NCBI GenBank assembly: GCA_963555755.3
Contig: OY820905.2
Location: forward strand, 3,200,001-3,264,000
DNA from: Nitrospirales bacterium
GTDB taxonomy: Bacteria; Nitrospirota; Nitrospiria; Nitrospirales; UBA8639
Reading direction: 5' to 3'
DNA: 64,000 nucleotides
Part shown: positions 23,859 to 41,843 of the stretch, piece by piece
Layout of the letters: each line of letters begins with the position of its first letter
Numbering within the stretch: the first letter of the stretch is position 1
Notes under the pieces: generated by a model
What the model saw: the letters and a program-made list of their open reading frames with translations, nothing else
What the model was told of the DNA's origin: nothing
Database searches by the model: none
Made by a program: the position numbers and the translations under genes

Positions 23859-24705
23859 GCCGATGTTGAGGTCCAGCTCTGATACTTCTTTGTGGGCATT
23901 CCTGGCACCTTGGTTGTGTTGTTTCTTGATAACCTCCCCAGTTGTTTTCGCCAAGGCCGATGAGATAACAGAACTGGCAAAACAGGTTCAAAATCCCGTC
24001 TCGGATCTAGTGAGAGTAGGGTTTGTAAATAGCACCTTGGGGGGTGCTGGGCAGAACAACTTTACCTCGAACCTATTCGTTCTGCAGGCAGATACCACAA
24101 AAAGATTTGGTAATTGGGCCCTGTTGAACCGGCTCAACATTCCTCTCCTCTATATACCGGCCAGTGGCATTTCACAAGAATCGGGAAGTAGTTTTGGATT
24201 GGGAGACATCGTATATACCGCCTTCTTTGCTCGGGATGAATCAAAGAGATTGCTAAAAGCCATAGCTGGTATCGGTCCCACTTTCGTTTTCAATTCCGCG
24301 TCGGAAGATCGACTCGGTACCGGGAAATGGAGCGTTGGGCCGACTGCGGCCTTAGCCCGGGTGCTGGATGATTGGGTATACGGCGTAACTGTCGGCAACC
24401 TCTGGTCTTTCGCAGGAGATGCTCAGCGCCGCCGGGTCAATCTATTCACGCTTGCACCCTTTATCAACTACAACTTTTTGAATGGCTGGTATCTTACGTC
24501 GACACCTAAGATTGTTGCCGACTGGGAACTTGCCAGTCATAACCGCTGGCTCGTTCCGATTGGAGGAGGAGTTGGTGCTGTGCTATTCCGTGGAGAAAAA
24601 CGTCCTATAAACTTGCAGATTCAAGCTTTCTATTTCATTAAAAAACCAGATCTCGGCCCTGATTGGTCCGTGAATCTAAAAGTGCGAATATTATTTCCTC
24701 AGTAA
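23851..24705 (+). CDS. Putative outer-membrane transporter/beta-barrel
   Basis: LAK..QNPVSDL, GLGDI, LGTGKWSVGP, PFINYN, VPIGGG; paralog of 28462. Confidence 0.75.
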   Translation: MSEPMLRSSSDTSLWAFLAPWLCCFLITSPVVFAKADEITELAKQVQNPVSDLVRVGFVNSTLGGAGQNNFTSNLFVLQADTTKRFGNWALLNRLNIPLLYIPASGISQESGSSFGLGDIVYTAFFARDESKRLLKAIAGIGPTFVFNSASEDRLGTGKWSVGPTAALARVLDDWVYGVTVGNLWSFAGDAQRRRVNLFTLAPFINYNFLNGWYLTSTPKIVADWELASHNRWLVPIGGGVGAVLFRGEKRPINLQIQAFYFIKKPDLGPDWSVNLKVRILFPQ

Positions 24706-24710
24706 TTGAA

Positions 24711-24851
24711 GGGCACCTCTAAAAACCAGGCATTTTTTATGAGGGCAAGGAAGCCGCGCGCGGAAAACCGGAGTGTATGGGCGAATACATGTGGATTTGA
24801 GCACGCGACTGATGCCGCCATCACGGAAAAGGACGGTTTTTAGAGGTGCCC
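24711..24851. mobile_element. GGGCACCTCT-family MITE
   Basis: TIR GGGCACCTCTAAAAACC; 4-bp TSD TGAA. Confidence 0.9.
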
Positions 24852-24855
24852 TGAA

Positions 24856-25279: not shown

Positions 25280-27182
25280 CAGGGCCATTTCATTCTTTTT
25301 ATAAGCAAGTGGTTCCATTAGGTTTTTTTGCTCTCTTTTTCAGGGCAAGGCCATACGGATGGCTACATGCGGCTTGGCCCAGAGCCATCTAAACGCCTGC
25401 GCGATATTGGTGTTGCCTTTCACGCGTAAGAGACTGATGGCATAGCGTCTCAGACAGGTCATGACCATCGGGCCATTGAGCCGTCTGATCTGACTCCGGT
25501 CTTCATCAAAGGTGACATCCAACACATAATGCTGCTTATTCTCCACACTCCAATGGTTCCGGTTTTGCGAGAGGATTTTCTGCGGCGATGCCTTCGCTGG
25601 TGACTGACTCGTGACTCCGCATACGGTATCTACCGTCGTGATGCCCTTCTTGAGATGCGCGACTTCCCTCTCAATGCAGAAGACTTGCTGCACATGGGGA
25701 AAGGTGACAGAGGCATTCAAGGAGTCGTCACACCAGATCCTACGGGTCGTGATCCGCCCATGGCCTTTATCGGTTGTTTCAGTATCACACCGTCGTACTC
25801 GCAACGCCAAGGCCTCAATGTCGCGTTTCAAGGTCGGCTGGTTCCCCTTGACGGTGAAGACGAAGTCGGCCCCGCGTTCTTGCACAAGGTAATTTGCGAT
25901 CTCTTTCTGGGTGAGGAGCGCATCCGCCGTGATGACCTTCCCTTCGATCTCCAGCTCATCGAATAAGGGACGCACGCAGGGGATCTCATTGGTCTTGGTG
26001 TCGACTTTTTTGGGGTGAGGTGGCGCCCCTCGTCATGGGTGACGGCACTGAGGACATGGGTCTGTTCGCTCGGGACCTTCGAAGTCCCCCGCATGGTCTT
26101 GCCATCAATGGCGATGCCCTGATCCTCCCCGCCGAAGGTATCCAGCCACCGGCCGAGCAGGGTATCGACTTCACAGGGGTCGACGGCATTGATAAACCGG
26201 TAGAGAGTGCTGCGGCTTGGGACGAGGTAGCGCCCTCCTCGCTTGGGACAGCCCAGCCGCGTTCTCATCGTCTGGGATAAATGCTGGGCCCAGTCCGCTA
26301 TGGCTTCATACCCACGTGCTCCACACAAGGTGGCACAGAACATGATCGCGGTGAGAGCTCGTCGGGGATGCCGTTGCCCTTGCAACTTGCGTGGATCGGT
26401 CAGCTGCACCACATAGGTAAACAGGGAGTCCGTCTGCTTGGTATTCAATCGCATCTGAGGCACCTTTCCTTTCTGATAGGTCGGATCAAGCATCGGGCGT
26501 GCAAGAATCTCTCGGGCTTGGGGATGGAGGCTCTTGACCAGGATGCGTTTCGGGCGGTCATGCTGAACATACCGCGTATTGGACTTGCGAAACCCGCGTG
26601 TCAGCCCGAGCTCCTGCCACCCGGCGGCTCGATAGCAGGTCCCGGTGAAGCGGGCAGGATCGACGAAGGTCTCTAAGAGGAGCAAGGGGTAGCCGTGGCA
26701 CAGGTGCCAATCGGCCGCGATCCGTTTCGCGCAGAGCGACAGGACTTTCGAGGCGAGGTTTTGTTGCGAACAGTCCGGCAGGATGAGAAACCGGGTGTTG
26801 TTGGCAAGTAAATGGAGGCGTTGCCATTGGAAACAGGGGGGCCAGCCGATCCAGTGGTCTCGCGCTCTCGATTTGAGGGCCGCCACCGCAAACACCCGCA
26901 AGGCCAGCCAGCGATCCTGCACACAGGCGAGATATTGGATCGATGGGCCAATCAACGGGGCAGGCCCGAGGTAGTGATGTCGGGCGAGAAGGGTCGTGAA
27001 GGCTTCCTTCTCGTCCGGGACAATCGGTCGAACTACGACTTGCCCAAGATCGATGGCCGGATGTCCGCTTGGCGATTCGTCTGGCATGAAAAAGAGTATG
27101 CCCCAAACGAAAAGAAAAAGCCAGCCTAAATCGATTATCCCTTATTATCTATGAAGTTGCACTTTAAAATGAAATAGTCCTG
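25280..27182 (-). mobile_element. ISAs1-family insertion sequence
   Basis: TIRs CAGGGCCATTTCATT / CAGGACTATTTCATT; 10-bp TSD CCCATAAGG(C/G). Confidence 0.9.
25340..27087 (-). CDS. ISAs1 transposase with N-terminal DUF4338-like domain; -1 frameshift near 26005-26011
   Basis: HHYLG, NNTRFLIL, LETFVDP..GTCYRAAGW; DPR..G.RH; AIDGKT.RG; after the shift TNEIP, TADAL, VKGNQP and HWSVEN. Confidence 0.88.
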
Positions 27183-29497: not shown

Positions 29498-31186
29498 ATG
29501 ATGAGAAGACGAACAGGTATTCTGGTGGCACCTCTTTTGTCGTTGTCCCTTTTCCTTGTGATCTCCGGGACATCATGGGGGGAAGGAAACGACGCCGCAC
29601 AACCTAAACTCGTTCTGCAAATCACGGTTGATCAGTTTCGAGGGGATTTACCAACGAGGCATGTGGATCGTCTCGGCAAAGGAGGTCTTCGGTATCTTTT
29701 AGAAAAAGGCACTCATTATGCGAACGCGCATTATCGGCATGCCAATACGGAAACGGCCGTGGGTCATGCCACACTTTTTACCGGAGCTGACCCTTCAAGA
29801 CATGGATTAGTCGGCAATGCGTGGATTGATCCGTTGACCGGCGAATCTGTGTATAACACGGAAGATGCCCGCCATCATCTCATCGGGAAAGATCCAAAAC
29901 CGCACGAGGGTGTCTCCCCGCGCAATCTCCTGGCCAGTACGATTGGTGATGAGCTGGTGGTCTCCAATGCCGGTCAATCGCGCGTGTTCAGTGTCTCGAT
30001 CAAAGATCGGGGTGCCATCATTCCTGGTGGGCATGCGGGTAAAGCCTTTTGGTATTCCAAACGCACAGGAGAATTTGTCACCAGTACGTATTATTACGAT
30101 GCGTATCCCCAATGGGTGAAGCAATGGAATCAAGCAAAGCCGGCGGATCGCTATAGAGGAAAGACATGGGAGTTGCTCCATGACCGCTCCACCTACGTGG
30201 CAGGAAAAATGGATGATCGTCCGTATGAAGCGAACTTCCCACCGTTGGGGAGAACCTTCCCTCATCAATTCGGGGACAACAAATACCTCTACTTGATTCT
30301 TTCATTGACTCCGGTTGGTGATGAATTGACGCTCGATTTTACCAAGACCCTTATTGAACATGAAAACCTCGGTCAAGGCGATCATGTTGATTTCCTGGCG
30401 GTCAGTTTTTCTTCGACCGATTATATCGGTCACATGTTCGGCCCATCGAGTCTTGAGAGTGAAGACAATGTTTTACGGCTTGACCGCATCTTAGCGGAGC
30501 TATTTGACTTTGTTGATAAAAAAGTTGGTTTGCAAAACACCCTTATTGTCCTCTCGGCCGATCACGGGGCACCGGAAGCGCCGGAATATATGACGAGTCT
30601 CGGGATGGAGGCCGGACGCTTCGACCTTACGTATTTCAGGGAGCAAGGGCCGTTAAACAAAGTATTAAAAACGCGTTTTGGGCGTGATGATTTGATTGCC
30701 ACGCATAGCCATCCGTATCTCTATCTGAATGTGGACGCTATTACTGAAGCGAAACTTGATATCGAAGAGGTAGAAAAATTTATCGCAGAGGAAGTCATGA
30801 AAATCCCGGGGATTGCGTACGCGCAGACACGGAGCGACCTGCTCGCGGGACGGATAGCGAATTCTCCTTTGCAAATCCAGATTCGACGCAACTTTCATCC
30901 CACGCGTTCCGGGCATATCCACATGATTCAGGAGCAATATTGGTTTTTACATTCCACGGATGAGGCGGCAAAGATGGGGATTGGAACGATTGCGGTAATC
31001 CACGGATCGCCATGGGCGTATGATACCTATGTCCCGATATTTTTTGCCGGCCACCATGTGCCTGCCCAAACGATTACCCGGCGAGTGGCACCCAGCGATA
31101 TTGCTCCCACGCTTGCAGCATATTTGAACATTAAATTTCCATCCGGATCCATCGGGAACCCGCTAAAAGAAATTTTAGAAAAATGA
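29498..31186 (+). CDS. PafA-like alkaline phosphatase superfamily protein
   Basis: ITVDQFRGD, Thr nucleophile motif TETAVGHAT, D.IGH.FGP, SADHG, HGSPW.YD. Confidence 0.92.
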   Translation: MMRRRTGILVAPLLSLSLFLVISGTSWGEGNDAAQPKLVLQITVDQFRGDLPTRHVDRLGKGGLRYLLEKGTHYANAHYRHANTETAVGHATLFTGADPSRHGLVGNAWIDPLTGESVYNTEDARHHLIGKDPKPHEGVSPRNLLASTIGDELVVSNAGQSRVFSVSIKDRGAIIPGGHAGKAFWYSKRTGEFVTSTYYYDAYPQWVKQWNQAKPADRYRGKTWELLHDRSTYVAGKMDDRPYEANFPPLGRTFPHQFGDNKYLYLILSLTPVGDELTLDFTKTLIEHENLGQGDHVDFLAVSFSSTDYIGHMFGPSSLESEDNVLRLDRILAELFDFVDKKVGLQNTLIVLSADHGAPEAPEYMTSLGMEAGRFDLTYFREQGPLNKVLKTRFGRDDLIATHSHPYLYLNVDAITEAKLDIEEVEKFIAEEVMKIPGIAYAQTRSDLLAGRIANSPLQIQIRRNFHPTRSGHIHMIQEQYWFLHSTDEAAKMGIGTIAVIHGSPWAYDTYVPIFFAGHHVPAQTITRRVAPSDIAPTLAAYLNIKFPSGSIGNPLKEILEK

Positions 31187-31264
31187 TAAGTGAAAAATGA
31201 TAAGTGAAAAATGAACAAAAGAGAGCCCATTTTTCACTTTTCATTGTTCATTTTTCACTTATTC
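31178..31264. repeat. Heptamer-repeat hairpin A
   Basis: AAATGAA-like units followed by their reverse complement; contains the stops of both convergent genes. Confidence 0.9.
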
Positions 31265-32413
31265 CCCCAGCTCTTTGAATAATTTGGTTGGATGAAGGAC
31301 TCGCGCAAAGGATAGTTTTAACGGCTGTTTGACCGGCGCAACGATAAAACAGGGGACCTCCGGATGGCTTTCATGGAACGATCGTAAACCAGACAAATCG
31401 CTTGAGGAAGGATTTGCAGAAATCTTGCATTCTATCGCGTAGAGAATTTCTGTCCCGCGGCTGATTAACAAGTCGACTTCAGCCCCATGGCTTGTCCGCC
31501 AGAAGGAGAGTTTCCAGTCTCTTTGATAGTATTCGTTATGTCGGATAACTTCTTGTATGAACCATTGTTCATAGAGACGTCCTTGTTCGATACGACTTGG
31601 CGGGTCTTTCAGTGTTCCTAAAATGGCTCGGGTCACACCATTATCGAAAAAATAAAATTTTGGCTGATGACTCATGCGTTTTCGTTGGCTTTTCAAATAG
31701 GGGTACAGGAAGGTTCCCAGTAACGTATCTTCAAAAATAGAATAATATTCACGGACTGTTGAAAGTGCTATTTGGCAATCACGAGCGATACCGGAAAAAT
31801 TTATCTGTTCTGCATATTGTGCGGCGGCAACATCTAAAAAGTTCTGAAAACCTTGAAGGTTTCGCACCAGAGCTTCCGCTTTCACCTCCTCTTTGAGGTA
31901 GGTGATCACGTAAGCTCTTAAGAGATCTTCTGCTTCCGCTGGTTTTCTTTGATTGAGGGTAGTGTAGATTTTAGGGAGCGAACCATATGCGAGTATCCAT
32001 TGCAGATTAAAGGTCTTAGACAATTCCTCGAATGTCAAAGGATGCATGGTGCGGTATAACGCTCTTCCTCCAAGTAGATTTGCTGCGCCGTGCCGAAGTT
32101 TTCGGGCAGAGGAGCCGCATAGAATAAATGTGAGTTTCGGCTTCTGTTCCATCAGTGAGTGGATGACATCAAGAATTTTGGGGACACGCTGTACTTCATC
32201 AATAAATATTGTCGAGGATTCTTTGAGTTCTTCGACCTGTTCCCTTAGCAGGTTAGGATTTTTTGTGTACGAGAGTTGGAGCTCAGGATCGAGCAGGTCG
32301 ATTGTCAAATTCGCGTTCTCCTTTTTTAAAAGCGTGCTTTTCCCAACCTGGCGTGGGCCAAACAGAAAGAAGCTCTTTTTGGGCAATTGATTCTCCAAAG
32401 TTCTTGAATACAT
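31259..32413 (-). CDS. AAA+ ATPase with DUF4143 domain
   Basis: GPRQVGKST, FIDEVQ, GSS, LLGGR, PKFYFFD.G, EVDL..IECK. Confidence 0.92.
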   Translation of the reverse strand: MYSRTLENQLPKKSFFLFGPRQVGKSTLLKKENANLTIDLLDPELQLSYTKNPNLLREQVEELKESSTIFIDEVQRVPKILDVIHSLMEQKPKLTFILCGSSARKLRHGAANLLGGRALYRTMHPLTFEELSKTFNLQWILAYGSLPKIYTTLNQRKPAEAEDLLRAYVITYLKEEVKAEALVRNLQGFQNFLDVAAAQYAEQINFSGIARDCQIALSTVREYYSIFEDTLLGTFLYPYLKSQRKRMSHQPKFYFFDNGVTRAILGTLKDPPSRIEQGRLYEQWFIQEVIRHNEYYQRDWKLSFWRTSHGAEVDLLISRGTEILYAIECKISANPSSSDLSGLRSFHESHPEVPCFIVAPVKQPLKLSFARVLHPTKLFKELGE

Positions 32414-32452
32414 AATTGTTAATATACCGTGCAAATTAACATGATATCAAGC

Positions 32453-32600
32453 AAAATGAAGGGAAAGGAAAAATGAACAATGGTAAATGAAAAGTGAAAA
32501 ATGGAAATAAAAATTTTGGACACCCAATTTTTCATTTATCATTTTTAATTTCCCTCCATCATTTTTCATTTTTCACTTTTCATTATTCATTTATCACTTA
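32453..32600. repeat. Heptamer-repeat hairpin B
   Basis: Purine-rich arm, AAAATTTTGG loop, pyrimidine-rich arm ending just before the RBS of 32618. Confidence 0.88.
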
Positions 32601-32617
32601 GTTCAGGAGGTTTCGTC

Positions 32618-33331
32618 ATGAAGTCGTTAACGCGTATCGTATTATGTATGTTTGTCCTAGCGGTGGCAGTCGGATGCGCCTCAACCAAGGTCACCAAGCG
32701 CGACTCGAAGATCGGCACGGAAAAGATTGCTCGGCCCGATCGTATTTATGTGTATCCCTTTGCGGCCACACCTGCCGACATCCCAACCTGGTCCGTTTCC
32801 GCAGGCCGGTATGCTGAAAGCACCACACCACAAACGCCAGAGCAAAGCGAGATGGGTCGAAACCTGGGCGTCCTCGTGGCGAAGGCATTGGTCACGGAAA
32901 TTCAGAAGATGGGACTTCCAGGATTAAGGGGTGCCAGCTACACCGTTCCGCGAATCAACAACATTATGATCATAGGGTATTTTGAAGCGGTCGAAGAAGG
33001 CAGTACGGTCAAACGCCTCTCACTTGGTTTCGGTTCCGGGGCCACAGAGTTAACGACAGCCGTGGAGGGCTACCAAATGACCCCTGAGGGCCCGCGCCTT
33101 CTTGGATCGGCCGAGCTCCAATCCGGCGGAGGAAAAACGCCTGGTTTGATTGTTCCTATTGCGGTACTCGCCGCCACCGCTAATCCGATCGGGCTTCTTG
33201 TTATGGGAGCGATGAAAGTGCGTGGTGAGATGACAGGAAGCAGTAAGCTCGAAGGTGCAGCCAAACGAACGGCCGAGGCCATTGCTGATCGGCTACGGGT
33301 ACGATTCAAGGAACAGGGGTGGATTCGGTAA
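32618..33331 (+). CDS. DUF4410-family lipoprotein
   Basis: AGGAGG RBS; lipobox AVGC; EEGS..R..LGFGSG and GGKTPG. Confidence 0.8.
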   Translation: MKSLTRIVLCMFVLAVAVGCASTKVTKRDSKIGTEKIARPDRIYVYPFAATPADIPTWSVSAGRYAESTTPQTPEQSEMGRNLGVLVAKALVTEIQKMGLPGLRGASYTVPRINNIMIIGYFEAVEEGSTVKRLSLGFGSGATELTTAVEGYQMTPEGPRLLGSAELQSGGGKTPGLIVPIAVLAATANPIGLLVMGAMKVRGEMTGSSKLEGAAKRTAEAIADRLRVRFKEQGWIR

Positions 33332-33662
33332 ATGAAAAATAATAGGGGAAATTAAAAATGATAAATGATAAATGAACAATTATGGTGGAAAATTTAAAAA
33401 GGAACAATGATAGGGGAAATTAAAAATGATAAATGATAAATGAACAATTATGGTGGAAAATTTAAAAAGGAACAATGATAGGGGAAATTAAAAATGATAA
33501 ATGATAAACGATTGGGGAAATGAAAAGTGAACAATGATAAATGAAAAATTATGGTGGAAAAATGAAAATTTTGGCCCCTAACCTTAATTTTTCATTTTTC
33601 ACTTTTCATTTTTAATTTCCCCTATTCTTTTTCACTTTTCATTTATCATTTTTCATTATTAA
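33329..33662. repeat. Heptamer-repeat block C with internal 68-bp tandem repeats
   Basis: 68-bp units start at 33343, 33411 and 33479 (last partial); inverted relative to block D. Confidence 0.9.
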
Positions 33663-33665
33663 TTT

Positions 33666-34019
33666 ATGAAGGATAATCCCCTTAAAGATAAGAGTTATAC
33701 ATTTGCAATTCGTGTTGTGAAACTATCTCAATTTTTACAGCAGGATAAAAAAGAGTTTGTGCTGAGCAAGCAAGTGCTTCGCAGTGGTACTGCAATCGGT
33801 GCACTCATTCGGGAGGCGGAGTTTGGGCAGAGTAAGGCGGATTTTGCTAGTAAAATGAGTATTTCATTGAAAGAGGCTAACGAAACGGAATATTGGTTGT
33901 CTTTGTTAAAGAACACAGACCTTATTGGTGAAGAGCAGTTTGTGAGTTTACAGTCTGACTGTAAGGAATTAATCGCGATGTTGGTATCAACGGTAAAAAC
34001 GGTAAAAAATGAAAAATGA
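33666..34019 (+). CDS. Four helix bundle protein (23S rRNA intervening-sequence protein / Avd-like family)
   Basis: KSY.FAIR..LSKQVLRSGTAIGA..REA..QS.ADF..K..I.LKEA.ET.YWL.LL. Confidence 0.93.
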   Translation: MKDNPLKDKSYTFAIRVVKLSQFLQQDKKEFVLSKQVLRSGTAIGALIREAEFGQSKADFASKMSISLKEANETEYWLSLLKNTDLIGEEQFVSLQSDCKELIAMLVSTVKTVKNEK

Positions 34020-34190
34020 AAAGTGAAAAATGAAAAGTGAACAACTAAAAATGAACAATGAAAAGTGAAAAATGAAAAATGAAGGTTAGGGGCCAAAATT
34101 TTCATTATTCATTTTTAAATTTTCCACCATAATTTTTCATTTATCATTATTCATTTTTCATTTCCCTTATTATTTTTCATTTTTAATTTT
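34004..34190. repeat. Heptamer-repeat block D
   Basis: Starts within the last codons of the four-helix gene; reverse complement of block C. Confidence 0.9.
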
Positions 34191-34195
34191 CTGCT

Positions 34196-35191
34196 ATGCA
34201 AGACAAAGTCGTCAAATACTCCGTTCTCTTCATCGCCCTGGTACTGGGGGCGCACGTGCTGCAGACGCTGGCGCAGGTGCTTCGGCCTCTGGCTATTGCT
34301 GTACTACTGCTGTTCGTGTTCACACCGCTGGCGCGCTACTCGAAGGAGAAGGGCATCCCGGTGTGGCTCACGTTCTCGGGAGCACTCGTGGCAGTGGTCC
34401 TACTCCTGAGCTTCGCCGGTTCCTTCCTCCACGTAGACGACATCCACCTGCAAGACAAAATTCCGCAGCTCCAGGAGAGGATCCGCAGCGATGGCGACGG
34501 TCTGCTGGCGACCGCGCTTCGGTTGGGGCTCGACCAGAGCTTTACACCGGAGAAGCTGAGCAACCTGGCAACGGCCACTGCCAGTCTAGGACTGGCGGCG
34601 GTTCGCACGCTGATCAGTGAGTCGCTTCTGGCTTTGATTCTGCTGATGTTCCTGGTGCAGTCCCGCGCACTGCTGGTGAGTGCCGTGGAGCGCAAATACG
34701 GTGCGACCGGTGTGGAAAATCTCGAGGCGATCGTGCGCAAAATCGAGGGGGATGTGGTCGCCTATCTCGGGACCAAAACCGCCATCAGCTTCGGGACGGC
34801 AGTGGTAAGCGGCGGCGTCCTTTTCCTGTTCAGCGCCAAGGCCATCGTTATCACCTCCCTGCTGATCTTCCTCCTGAATTATATTCCGATCATCGGTTCG
34901 CTGATCGCCGTCCTTATCGCCTTCGTGGTCTATGTCGTGAGCTTCGGCCTGACGGCGACGGCGGGTTGGATGCTGCTGGCGATGATGGCTGTCCAGATCC
35001 TGTTTGGCAGCATCCTGGAGCCGAAAATCGCGGGAAAGCAGCTGAATATGTCGCCGATCCTCATCGTCATCAGCCTTTATGTCTGGGGATGGATCTGGGG
35101 CATCACCGGCATGCTGCTATCGGTGCCGCTGACTATCTTCATCCTTGTCGCCGTCAAGCACGTCGCTGGCACGGAGAAAAATGAAAAGTGA
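34196..35191 (+). CDS. AI-2E family transporter
   Basis: LNYIPIIGS, ILEPK..G..LN.SP, WGWIWG..GMLL.VP; visibly GC-richer than its neighbours. Confidence 0.92.
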   Translation: MQDKVVKYSVLFIALVLGAHVLQTLAQVLRPLAIAVLLLFVFTPLARYSKEKGIPVWLTFSGALVAVVLLLSFAGSFLHVDDIHLQDKIPQLQERIRSDGDGLLATALRLGLDQSFTPEKLSNLATATASLGLAAVRTLISESLLALILLMFLVQSRALLVSAVERKYGATGVENLEAIVRKIEGDVVAYLGTKTAISFGTAVVSGGVLFLFSAKAIVITSLLIFLLNYIPIIGSLIAVLIAFVVYVVSFGLTATAGWMLLAMMAVQILFGSILEPKIAGKQLNMSPILIVISLYVWGWIWGITGMLLSVPLTIFILVAVKHVAGTEKNEK

Positions 35192-35380
35192 ACAACGAAA
35201 AATGAAAAGTGAACAACGAAAAATGAAAAGTGAACAATGAAAAATGAAAAGTGAACAATGAAAAATGAAAAGTGAACAGTGAACAACTAAAATTGAAAAG
35301 TGAACAGCGAACAATGAATAGTGAAAAATTAACCATGCGGATATCACAACAATGAAAACCTATTTTTCATTTATCATTGT
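35176..35380. repeat. Heptamer-repeat block E
   Basis: About five 21-bp units GAAAAATGAAAAGTGAACAA(C/T), then a short complementary arm. Confidence 0.9.
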
Positions 35381-35441
35381 GGCGGGCTCTAATCAATAAG
35401 TCACCAGTTTCATTGGGCCAGAAAATTGGGGGAGACTATTG

Positions 35442-36184
35442 ATGGTGCATCGAAGTTCATTGAAGGTTCCAAGTCGTTTCTTGAAATATTGTGTTCTGGG
35501 TCTGAGTGCCACCATTCTCTTTGGATGCGCGAAAGCATTGGTTGTGCCGATCAATCCTGCCAGTGAGGGCTTGCCAAAACCCGACCATATTGTGGTCTAC
35601 GATTTTGTGGTCACGTCTGGAGATGTACAGCTCGATGTTGGTGTTGGAACCAAAATGCTTCGCGATGCGAAAGGCACCTCTCAGACTGCAGAGGAAATCC
35701 GTGTCGGCCGTGCGGTGGCCGAGGCGCTTTCCAAAAAATGGTTGAGGAACTTCGGGGAAAGGGCATTACGGCCTATCGAGCGCGTTTTACTCCCCCTGCC
35801 TCTTCAACCACAGCATCAATTAAAGGGCAATTCAGGCAAATCGATCAGGGAAACCGAACCCTTCGGACTATGGTGGGTTTCGGGTTTGGAGGGAGTAAGC
35901 TGGGGACAAGCATCCAGTTCTATCAGGGAAAGGGACGGGAGGCGAAATTGGTCGGAGAAGCGGAAACCATGACTGAAAGCAGTTTAAAGCCCGGCATTGG
36001 CGTTCTCTTTCCAGTTGGTGCTGCGGCTGGGACTGTGGCGACGGCTGCTGCGGTCAGTGGTACGACCACTGTCGCCATGGAGAAATTTTTCGCGACCGTT
36101 GAAGCAGATGCCAAACGTACTGCCGAGGCTATTGCAAAAAGAATTATCAACTATTACGAGCGTCATGGGTGGCACAGGCGGTAA
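35442..36184 (+). pseudogene. DUF4410-family lipoprotein, frameshifted in an A6 run (35733-35738)
   Basis: One extra A fuses ORFs 35439 and 35738 into a full-length paralog. Confidence 0.8.
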
Positions 36185-41710: not shown

Positions 41711-41843
41711 GTAACTACTCAGGTGGATAGGCTGAAGGCCGAAGGCTTTTAGGAAGCAATCATGCGTGATAATACAAAACCTCGGACATTATGAGTAATA
41801 GCCTTCAGTCTTTAGCCTTCAGCCTAAATACCTGAGTAGTTAC
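41711..41843. mobile_element. MITE, IS66-like ends
   Basis: TIRs GTAACTACTCAGG / CCTGAGTAGTTAC; 8-bp TSD AATTAGTT. Confidence 0.88.

Follow-up and report, generated by a model that had tools for sequence, protein, structure and literature searches.

We examined a 64-kb stretch of the 4.6-Mb genome of a Nitrospirales bacterium (genome G000; hereafter "the window", C1:3200001-3264000), in which a row of unrelated genes is punctuated by five hairpins built of heptamer repeats. These hairpins probably derive from a small mobile element, in which a four-helix-bundle gene is enclosed by mirror-image heptamer arms; they would be its arms and empty remnants, serving as portable homology for ordinary recombination that deletes and re-joins whole genes. 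What is new at this locus is the evidence that genes are lost and exchanged at leftover hairpins, and that this does not amount to an attC-like system. The loss or swapping of whole genes at the hairpins most likely proceeds through ordinary recombination between repeats rather than by way of a specialised capture enzyme of the integron kind.

The heptamer tracts occupy five consecutive junctions and consist of AARTGAA-type (purine) arms followed by their own reverse complement (pyrimidine arms); all five are strandless features. Hairpin 1 (31178..31264; purine arm, loop, pyrimidine arm) contains the stops of two convergent genes. Hairpin 2 (32453..32600) lies between divergent genes, has no stop codon inside and ends 4 nt 5' of the AGGAGG of a DUF4410 gene. 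The purine arm of hairpin 3 (33329..33662) is enlarged by a 68-nt unit present 2.6 times, and this hairpin is the reverse complement (82-91%) of hairpin 4 (34004..34190), whose purine arm takes the place of the four-helix gene's last codons. Hairpin 5 (35176..35380) has an enlarged purine arm and a pyrimidine arm shortened by a deletion, which also took out two genes that a related locus, L167, has. Compared with shuffled sequences, hairpins 1 to 4 fold locally into far more stable RNA (z of -8.2, -3.8, -4.8 and -5.0), and hairpin 5 is marginal (z -1.95; 8 of 200 shuffles fold equally well) because its pyrimidine arm is truncated. As hairpins 3 and 4 are mutually reverse-complementary, loops included, one long predicted stem also encloses the four-helix open reading frame (ORF; 33320-34200, -264.9 kcal/mol, z -11.2 against 20 shuffles).

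Five genes stop inside a purine arm or at its edge: a PafA-like alkaline phosphatase-family gene (29498..31186, plus strand; stop at 31184-86, following ILEK), an AAA_14 + DUF4143 ATPase gene that is reversed in the row (31259..32413, minus strand; stop at 31259-61), a DUF4410 lipoprotein gene (32605..33331 including its ribosome-binding site, plus strand; stop at 33329-31), the four-helix-bundle gene (33666..34019, plus strand; stop at 34017-19, following KNEK) and an AI-2E family transporter gene (34196..35191, plus strand; stop at 35189-91, following KNEK). The terminal EK and stop codons of the PafA gene come from hairpin 1; its relatives in L043, L172 and genome G005 terminate in NTR and a stop at the arm edge. 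The last residues of the AI-2E protein likewise come from hairpin 5. The tail differs in a 94% identical AI-2E homolog; in the window copy, then, the arm took the place of the final four codons. Gene starts at 32618, 33666 and 34196 lie 17, 3 and 5 nt 3' of a pyrimidine arm. GC content and third-position GC (GC3) are.50/.50 for PafA,.44/.44 for AAA,.55/.57 for DUF4410,.39/.40 for the four-helix gene and.59/.77 for AI-2E. To judge from its GC3 and from the lack of a copy in 200 other genomes of the phylum, the AI-2E gene is foreign. Runs of at least two AARTGAA-class heptamers were absent outside 31170-35390 (0 of 20 runs in the window); other heptamer classes occur in the window at 41804 and 63971. 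An earlier note, made from the letters of this stretch alone, had described all five repeat tracts, five genes that terminate within purine arms, three that begin right after pyrimidine arms, the visible GC differences (.39-.59) and the confinement of this heptamer class to the row, and a check of the sequence bore out each of these observations, with the stops in the arm interior or at its edge.

The arms accompany the four-helix gene well beyond this locus; the same note had called for a cross-genome check of such enrichment. We used the best 80 of 557 relatives of the gene from GTDB genomes, belonging to at least 10 labelled phyla; a quick tree was built with 96 rows, and three of the 80 were excluded for internal stops. 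At least three AARTGAA-like heptamers lay just upstream of 61 of the 77 remaining genes, and the reverse complement lay just downstream of 53, versus 130 of 5057 background windows; three other heptamer classes lay beside none of the 77. A purine arm-gene-pyrimidine arm build was found at 41 of 72 four-helix loci. A full hairpin on each side of the gene, as in the window, was present at just 2 of 72, and intermediates exist. Same-class arms are about tenfold denser at 0.3-4 kb from the gene (43 of 8360 segments) than at 4-6 kb (2 of 3751), and clusters of same-class arms over several junctions were found in Opitutales and Bacteroidales. At L044 and L046, 21 kb of an Opitutales chromosome holds four PF05635 genes and many same-class hairpins amid DUF3604/sulfatase genes. 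Since the arms are linked to the gene, clustering of class labels on the tree reflects co-transfer, not recognition.

This distribution bears on the alternative that local slippage produced the arrays as plain repeats, with the four-helix gene a bystander. It is true that arms grow and shrink in 7-nt steps and that two distant AARTGAA runs, at sdhA-sucC and fliM-fliN, have seemingly grown from GCGTGA-class arms. The inverted arms, however, are paired and their loops are homologous, the heptamer class accompanies the protein clade over at least 10 phyla and 29-53% GC, and one genome, G000, carries four TIGR02436 genes of three clades with three heptamer classes alongside. The tie between class and clade already contradicts slippage with a bystander gene, which we regard as very improbable. 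From the flavoprotein gene to sucC (L205:2400-2527, C1:4254899-4255026), about 18 perfect heptamer copies run unpaired from the stop codon onward. A lone AARTGAA-class pyrimidine arm lies at L222:2319-2357 (C1:1387818-1387856), with the partner arm and a four-helix gene absent nearby.

Across G000 we counted 85 period-7 regions, compared with 3, 9, 1 and 11 for periods 5, 6, 8 and 9, and strict searches returned 131 heptamer arms at 105 sites of five classes (1 arm and 1 site in each of two control sequences); chance does not account for these numbers. Most arm pairs are empty: 62 of 65 consist of a purine arm, a loop and a pyrimidine arm, and none of the 65 encloses a cargo gene. Empty hairpins sit in housekeeping operons, among them guaB-guaA, nuoA-nuoB, nuoB-nuoCD, purH-purD, murB-ddl, hisB-hisH, atpG-atpD, fliM-fliN, flgK-flgL and others. 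With genes called by a simple purpose-made caller, 70 stops were scored beside 60 hairpins genome-wide; 19 of them overlap an arm, and for 35 the distance to an arm is at most 10 nt. The earlier note had taken stop overlap as the mark of a cassette. As the overlap also occurs at empty hairpins of fixed housekeeping operons, it is a property of the repeat family, not of cassettes; the 7-mer contains TGA or TAA, so its repeats place stops in all three frames.

Some empty hairpins can be traced to the element itself. A GGCTGAA arm pair (C1:3817700-3818011) retains the first codons of a four-helix ORF that is intact between such arms in genome G006, and empty hairpins can therefore be gutted elements. 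The larger interval C1:3817041-3818011, considered as cargo inside one arm pair, was rejected, as it holds a host gene between a hairpin and the gutted four-helix copy. Heptamer arms can, by comparison of fliM-fliN sequences, apparently switch class in place: three heptamer classes occupy this junction in three genomes (L203:10151-10336 in G000, L239 and L243), and the G000 version is a hybrid, in which a purine arm of the AARTGAA class and a pyrimidine arm of the GCGTGA class flank a loop that is found in G005. Another four-helix gene appears to have a long-lived fixed site: it is intact between ybeY and ftsY in G002 and, in G008, 3' of ybeY (loci L016 and L015); in G000 this copy is broken by a repeat insertion (L204 and L017, C1:3789360-3790003). 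At L014, in G003, the four-helix gene has TCGTATY-class arms that are stop-free on the gene strand, so that stop coding is not universal.

The stability and placement of the hairpins also suggest that they might be kept as RNA signals (RNase III-type cleavage sites, terminators or elements of translation coupling) that split a polycistronic mRNA into pieces the size of single genes, with gene loss a side effect. Stable stems at four of the five junctions and the long stem around the four-helix ORF agree with this reading, as do the anchoring at stops genome-wide, the occupation of fliM-fliN by three heptamer classes in three genomes, and a Coxiella intervening sequence (IVS) that combines this protein family with heptamer repeats and is excised by RNase III (accessible text of PMC4990558). 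Against it, hairpin 2 lies between divergent genes, loops are found in either orientation, close alleles of the same genes have no hairpins, and G003 has none at fliO-fliP. The scarcity of hairpins between divergent genes (5 of 60), which would favour an RNA role, is only mildly below the share of divergent junctions overall (14.7%). Although compatible with the mobile-element explanation, maintenance as RNA signals seems improbable.

Comparison with relatives placed differences of whole genes at the hairpins. In the window, hairpins follow each of PafA, AAA, DUF4410, the four-helix gene and AI-2E. L043 has PafA, DUF4410, the four-helix gene, AI-2E and then another gene, with a hairpin at every junction; it is labelled Caldithrix, is 85-89% identical and carries a multicopy repeat of G000, and it is taken as a mis-binned relative (L123 is the same contig). 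Hairpins likewise join PafA and DUF4410 in L172, and DUF4410, AI-2E and another gene in L167. L127 reads other gene, AAA and DUF4410, and G005 (an assembly 64% complete) reads PafA fragment, AAA and DUF4410; in both, hairpins separate the genes and the 3' hairpin of DUF4410 is absent. L125 has hairpins on both sides of DUF4410, followed by the four-helix gene. A paralogous locus 74 kb upstream of the window row carries DUF4410, the four-helix gene and an AI-2E fragment with hairpins between them, the 5' hairpin being absent, and DUF4410 in L124 and L126 has no hairpins. Among DUF4410 alleles, 5' and 3' hairpins are present or absent in each of the four possible combinations. The AAA gene is missing in L043 and L172 and the four-helix gene in L167, each time with both breaks within hairpins, as the earlier note had anticipated for relatives. 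The same hairpins also adjoin other neighbours, the upstream gene differing in L127 and the downstream gene in L043 and L167. A 230-nt skip in the four-helix ORF (window 33776-34007) was seen in contigs of three sediment or marine sequencing runs (X9, X12 and X15); their flanks are only 28-30 nt and they may derive from other organisms. Joints in sequencing-run contigs were explained by the paralogous locus, by repeats or by other organisms.

Both clean absences are more simply read as losses between adjacent repeats. The AI-2E gene of L167 is 97.3% identical to that of the window, 92% to that of L043 and 87-88% to the paralog, and all three of these loci carry the four-helix gene; its absence from L167 is therefore nested among carriers, and loss would be the simpler reading. 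The carriers of AAA straddle the deepest split in PafA (91.4%), and AAA alleles diverge as much as their neighbours do (94-96%), so that the absence in L043 and L172 is also nested among carriers and would likewise point to loss. DUF4410 alleles are, on the pattern of their variable sites, recombinant within the gene body: incompatible site pairs numbered 193 of 521 near versus 472 of 845 far (0 of 2000 permutations). Among 43 homology ends, five fall in mid-gene and five at hairpin-free junctions. In hairpin-free pairs of DUF4410 alleles, similarity likewise ends no more than 60 nt from the stop (21 of 26) or from the start (15 of 20), and neighbouring genes without hairpins turn over as whole genes too.

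Several observations weigh against ordinary recombination and loss. The polarity of the two absences is built on distances among mosaic sequences and, for AAA, on only 185 nt of PafA. Homology ends lie within 16 nt of a hairpin in 33 of 43 cases, an inflated figure and weak evidence, because the space between genes is taken up by hairpins and a break that leaves genes intact has to fall there. DUF4410 alleles with and without a hairpin diverge 2 nt past the last codon in all 8 pairs and 12-20 nt upstream of the ATG in all 14, counts that are non-independent, and these joints are tighter than those of hairpin-free pairs. In our survey of 50 DUF4410 loci (5' flank scorable at 45, 3' flank at 34), an array gene directly adjoins DUF4410 at five, and a hairpin is there in all five; no hairpin-free version of these adjacencies was found among the 50, and the genes may therefore have been joined through hairpins. 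In addition, hairpins so short and AT-rich, with a similarity of only about 70-85%, are marginal for RecA, and no mobility enzyme was found for the element.

These points bring in the strongest competing account, developed from the earlier note, in which the hairpins are sites where a dedicated system captures or recombines genes: an Avd-like pentamer binds the heptamer hairpins cognate to it, in RNA or single-stranded DNA form, and a host enzyme acting in trans, either a reverse transcriptase or a recombinase, joins gene-sized units. It gains from the tight joints at a stop, a ribosome-binding site or a -35 box, from foreign genes differing in GC, from the lack of hairpin-free adjacencies in all 50 DUF4410 loci, and from the changed neighbours beside the same hairpins in L127, L043 and L167. 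Similar rows exist in Bacteroidales, where AAA-DUF4143, ParE and nucleotidyltransferase genes lie amid arms (L074 and L112); an AAA_14-DUF4143 gene lies within 6 kb of the four-helix gene at 3 of 80 loci (L074, L112 and L049), and ParE and nucleotidyltransferase genes lie amid the arms of L074. The predicted fold of the protein is suggestive too. The 117-aa product (PF05635 and TIGR02436, E 1.3e-26 and 9.1e-30, above cut-offs) is 57% identical to the pentameric 2RLD, and its predicted structure (pLDDT 95) matches 2RLD (template-modelling score, TM, 0.9), 2GSC and 4DWL, the Avd accessory protein of diversity-generating retroelements (DGRs). In Foldseek, Avd 4DWL scores TM 0.77-0.83 with E 0.024 and 14% identity, and 2RLD and 2GSC rank above it. 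The four-helix protein thus has an Avd-like fold by prediction, in keeping with the relationship that the earlier note had drawn, and PF05635 and Avd are described as homologous (accessible text of PMC10053308). An enzyme could act in trans, given 34 reverse transcriptase matches above cut-off in the genome. Many of these matches are identical and multicopy, and they are probably of group II intron type.

Other evidence counts against a capture system. The attC cores RYYYAAC/GTTRRRY were found at none of the five junctions by a script that detected an attC-like site near the true integrase, and neither an integrase nor a reverse transcriptase is encoded locally. No IntI tyrosine recombinase is present in the 64-kb window; the only full IntI of the genome (C1:318997-319857, above the TIGR02249 cut-off, with two IntI fragments and one attC-like site nearby, also at C1:333264) is 2.9 Mb away, where heptamer arrays are absent. 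None of the 35 PF00078 matches of the genome lies in the window. The earlier note's remark that no recombinase or reverse transcriptase is encoded locally holds for enzymes of these two kinds but not for insertion sequence (IS) transposases, which are present. The clean gene differences polarise as losses, crossovers also fall within gene bodies, and most arm pairs of the genome are empty, many of them within fixed operons. The arm replaced the last four codons of AI-2E, so that joint is not exact, and hairpins 1 and 2 remain in the incomplete G005 assembly without the four-helix gene at that locus. The AAA unit takes in its own -35 box: a predicted sigma-70 promoter (32421..32450, minus strand, 10/12 match) has a -35 box that begins 2 nt from hairpin 2 and marks where homology stops with a hairpin-free AAA copy in G144 (81% identical, adjoining IS-like sequence). 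An mRNA copy would lack the -35 box, which argues against capture of this gene from its own mRNA.

Nor do the genes of the row behave as far-travelling, hairpin-carrying cassettes, a possibility that we rejected for three of them. Flanking arrays were found at 0 of 29 other AAA loci (the survey took 30 loci from 34 matching genomes of 151), a repeat-coded tail in 2 of 70 AI-2E homologs (scored on protein ends, not DNA), and arms at 5 of 50 DUF4410 loci, all among the closest alleles. The attC-like, site-specific capture proposed by the earlier note is accordingly not sustained, and that note stands as an observation that was confirmed and an interpretation that is partly supported. A dedicated capture system is, on this balance, unlikely. 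In its fullest form, the pentamer would be an Avd-like adaptor that reads its own heptamer code; together with a reverse transcriptase or recombinase supplied in trans by the host, it would place copies of the hairpins at gene ends and link foreign gene-sized units there. This is a doubtful candidate for an integrase-free capture platform; if true, it would account as well for the surplus of 7-base repeats in the genomes of bacteria.

The mobile-element explanation can be laid out as follows. Elsewhere the basic unit is a purine arm, the four-helix ORF and a pyrimidine arm, set between one stop and the next start. Among 31 genomes of the order, the AARTGAA class occurs in two (G000, and G005 at the orthologous locus only) and the four-helix clade in G000 alone; together with the absence of AI-2E from 200 genomes, this leads us to infer that the element arrived recently within a plastic, IS-rich island, and the neighbouring junctions may then have been seeded. 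Because the class has stops in all three frames and insertions within genes are purged, arms would come to abut stops, ribosome-binding sites and promoters. Gutted copies of the element leave empty hairpins behind, and RecA-type exchange or replication slippage between hairpins could then remove genes and join genes from different loci, yielding a cassette-like row. Recombination between hairpins of different loci would account for the adjacencies seen only with a hairpin.

The surroundings are rich in mobile DNA, with IS110, IS1595, IS240-type and DDE transposases. A multicopy IS (DDE_Tnp_1) lies at window positions 25340-27087, with at least 20 further copies in the genome; its first ORF encodes a fusion of DruA-like and DDE-associated domains. 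A 150-nt repeat at 24705-24855 has more than 100 genome copies at 90-97% identity. Beyond the hairpin-bounded part lies a second DUF4410 gene (35442..36184, plus strand), split by a frameshift and intact in L167.

To our knowledge, no function is known for the PF05635 family beyond a few rRNA intervening sequences. A search of mostly open-access main texts yielded no publication in which four-helix-bundle genes are tied, outside rRNA, to inverted arms of heptamers. Intergenic heptamer repeats in bacteria have been noted, with no mechanism of spread given in the accessible text (PMC4679880). The pairing of one clade with one class over at least 10 phyla, and of three clades with three classes in one genome, makes class-specific binding and mobility testable with a control built in. 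Clustered leftover hairpins that act as joints for whole-gene loss and exchange would offer a route to integron-like rows without an integrase.

Several known systems resemble parts of this locus. Integron cassette arrays, as generally known, share with it a row of unrelated, mostly promoterless genes between hairpins, whole genes present or absent at those hairpins, and one reversed gene with its own promoter. Unlike integrons, the row has no R-box cores and no integrase nearby, its sites are symmetric and occur in both orientations, its differences polarise as losses, and the same hairpin design recurs in fixed housekeeping operons. We therefore rejected the integron/attC reading, the cores being absent from the junctions and the integrase from the window. 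DGRs share the four-helix fold of Avd (4DWL, 8UBE), but no reverse transcriptase lies in the window and the protein is only 14% identical to Avd.

Cyanobacterial short tandemly repeated repetitive (STRR) sequences are comparable intergenic heptamer repeats. Period-7 intergenic tandem repeats near starts and stops, a feature of the TAACTGA/STRR type, are found here as well. The accessible part of PMC4679880, by MacGregor, describes TAACTGA-type intergenic heptamers in Beggiatoaceae, Cyanobacteria and Bacteroidetes that likewise have period 7, lie near starts or over stops, and are patchy across phyla; it points out that the 7-mer gives stops in all three frames, notes the stop overlap, and raises a mobile repeat-binding protein as one possibility. 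There the repeats are described mainly as direct repeats, and that part of the article names neither a four-helix-bundle gene nor paired arms (PMC4679880).

The ORF-bearing 23S rRNA IVS with S23p in Coxiella burnetii belongs to the same family and has its ORF in a long stem; according to the accessible text, tandem heptamers of variable number lie upstream of that ORF, which is prone to decay, and RNase III cuts the IVS out (PMC4990558). Unlike the S23p IVS, the four-helix gene here sits among protein genes, and neighbouring junctions carry extra empty hairpins. A search of its context found no rRNA match and six weak Rfam hits far under gathering scores, which we dismissed as sub-threshold hairpin look-alikes. 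Repetitive extragenic palindromes (REPs and REPINs) with their RAYT transposases, as generally known, are similarly short palindromic intergenic repeats with many empty copies, dense around the cognate gene and of a protein-specific class. Unlike RAYT, the cognate gene here encodes no HUH (Y1) transposase but an all-helical 117-aa protein without a known catalytic domain, and its units are tandem heptamers. Failing a defining test of each, the element is built like an S23p IVS outside rRNA, is distributed like REPINs around a RAYT and is loosely like an integron array.

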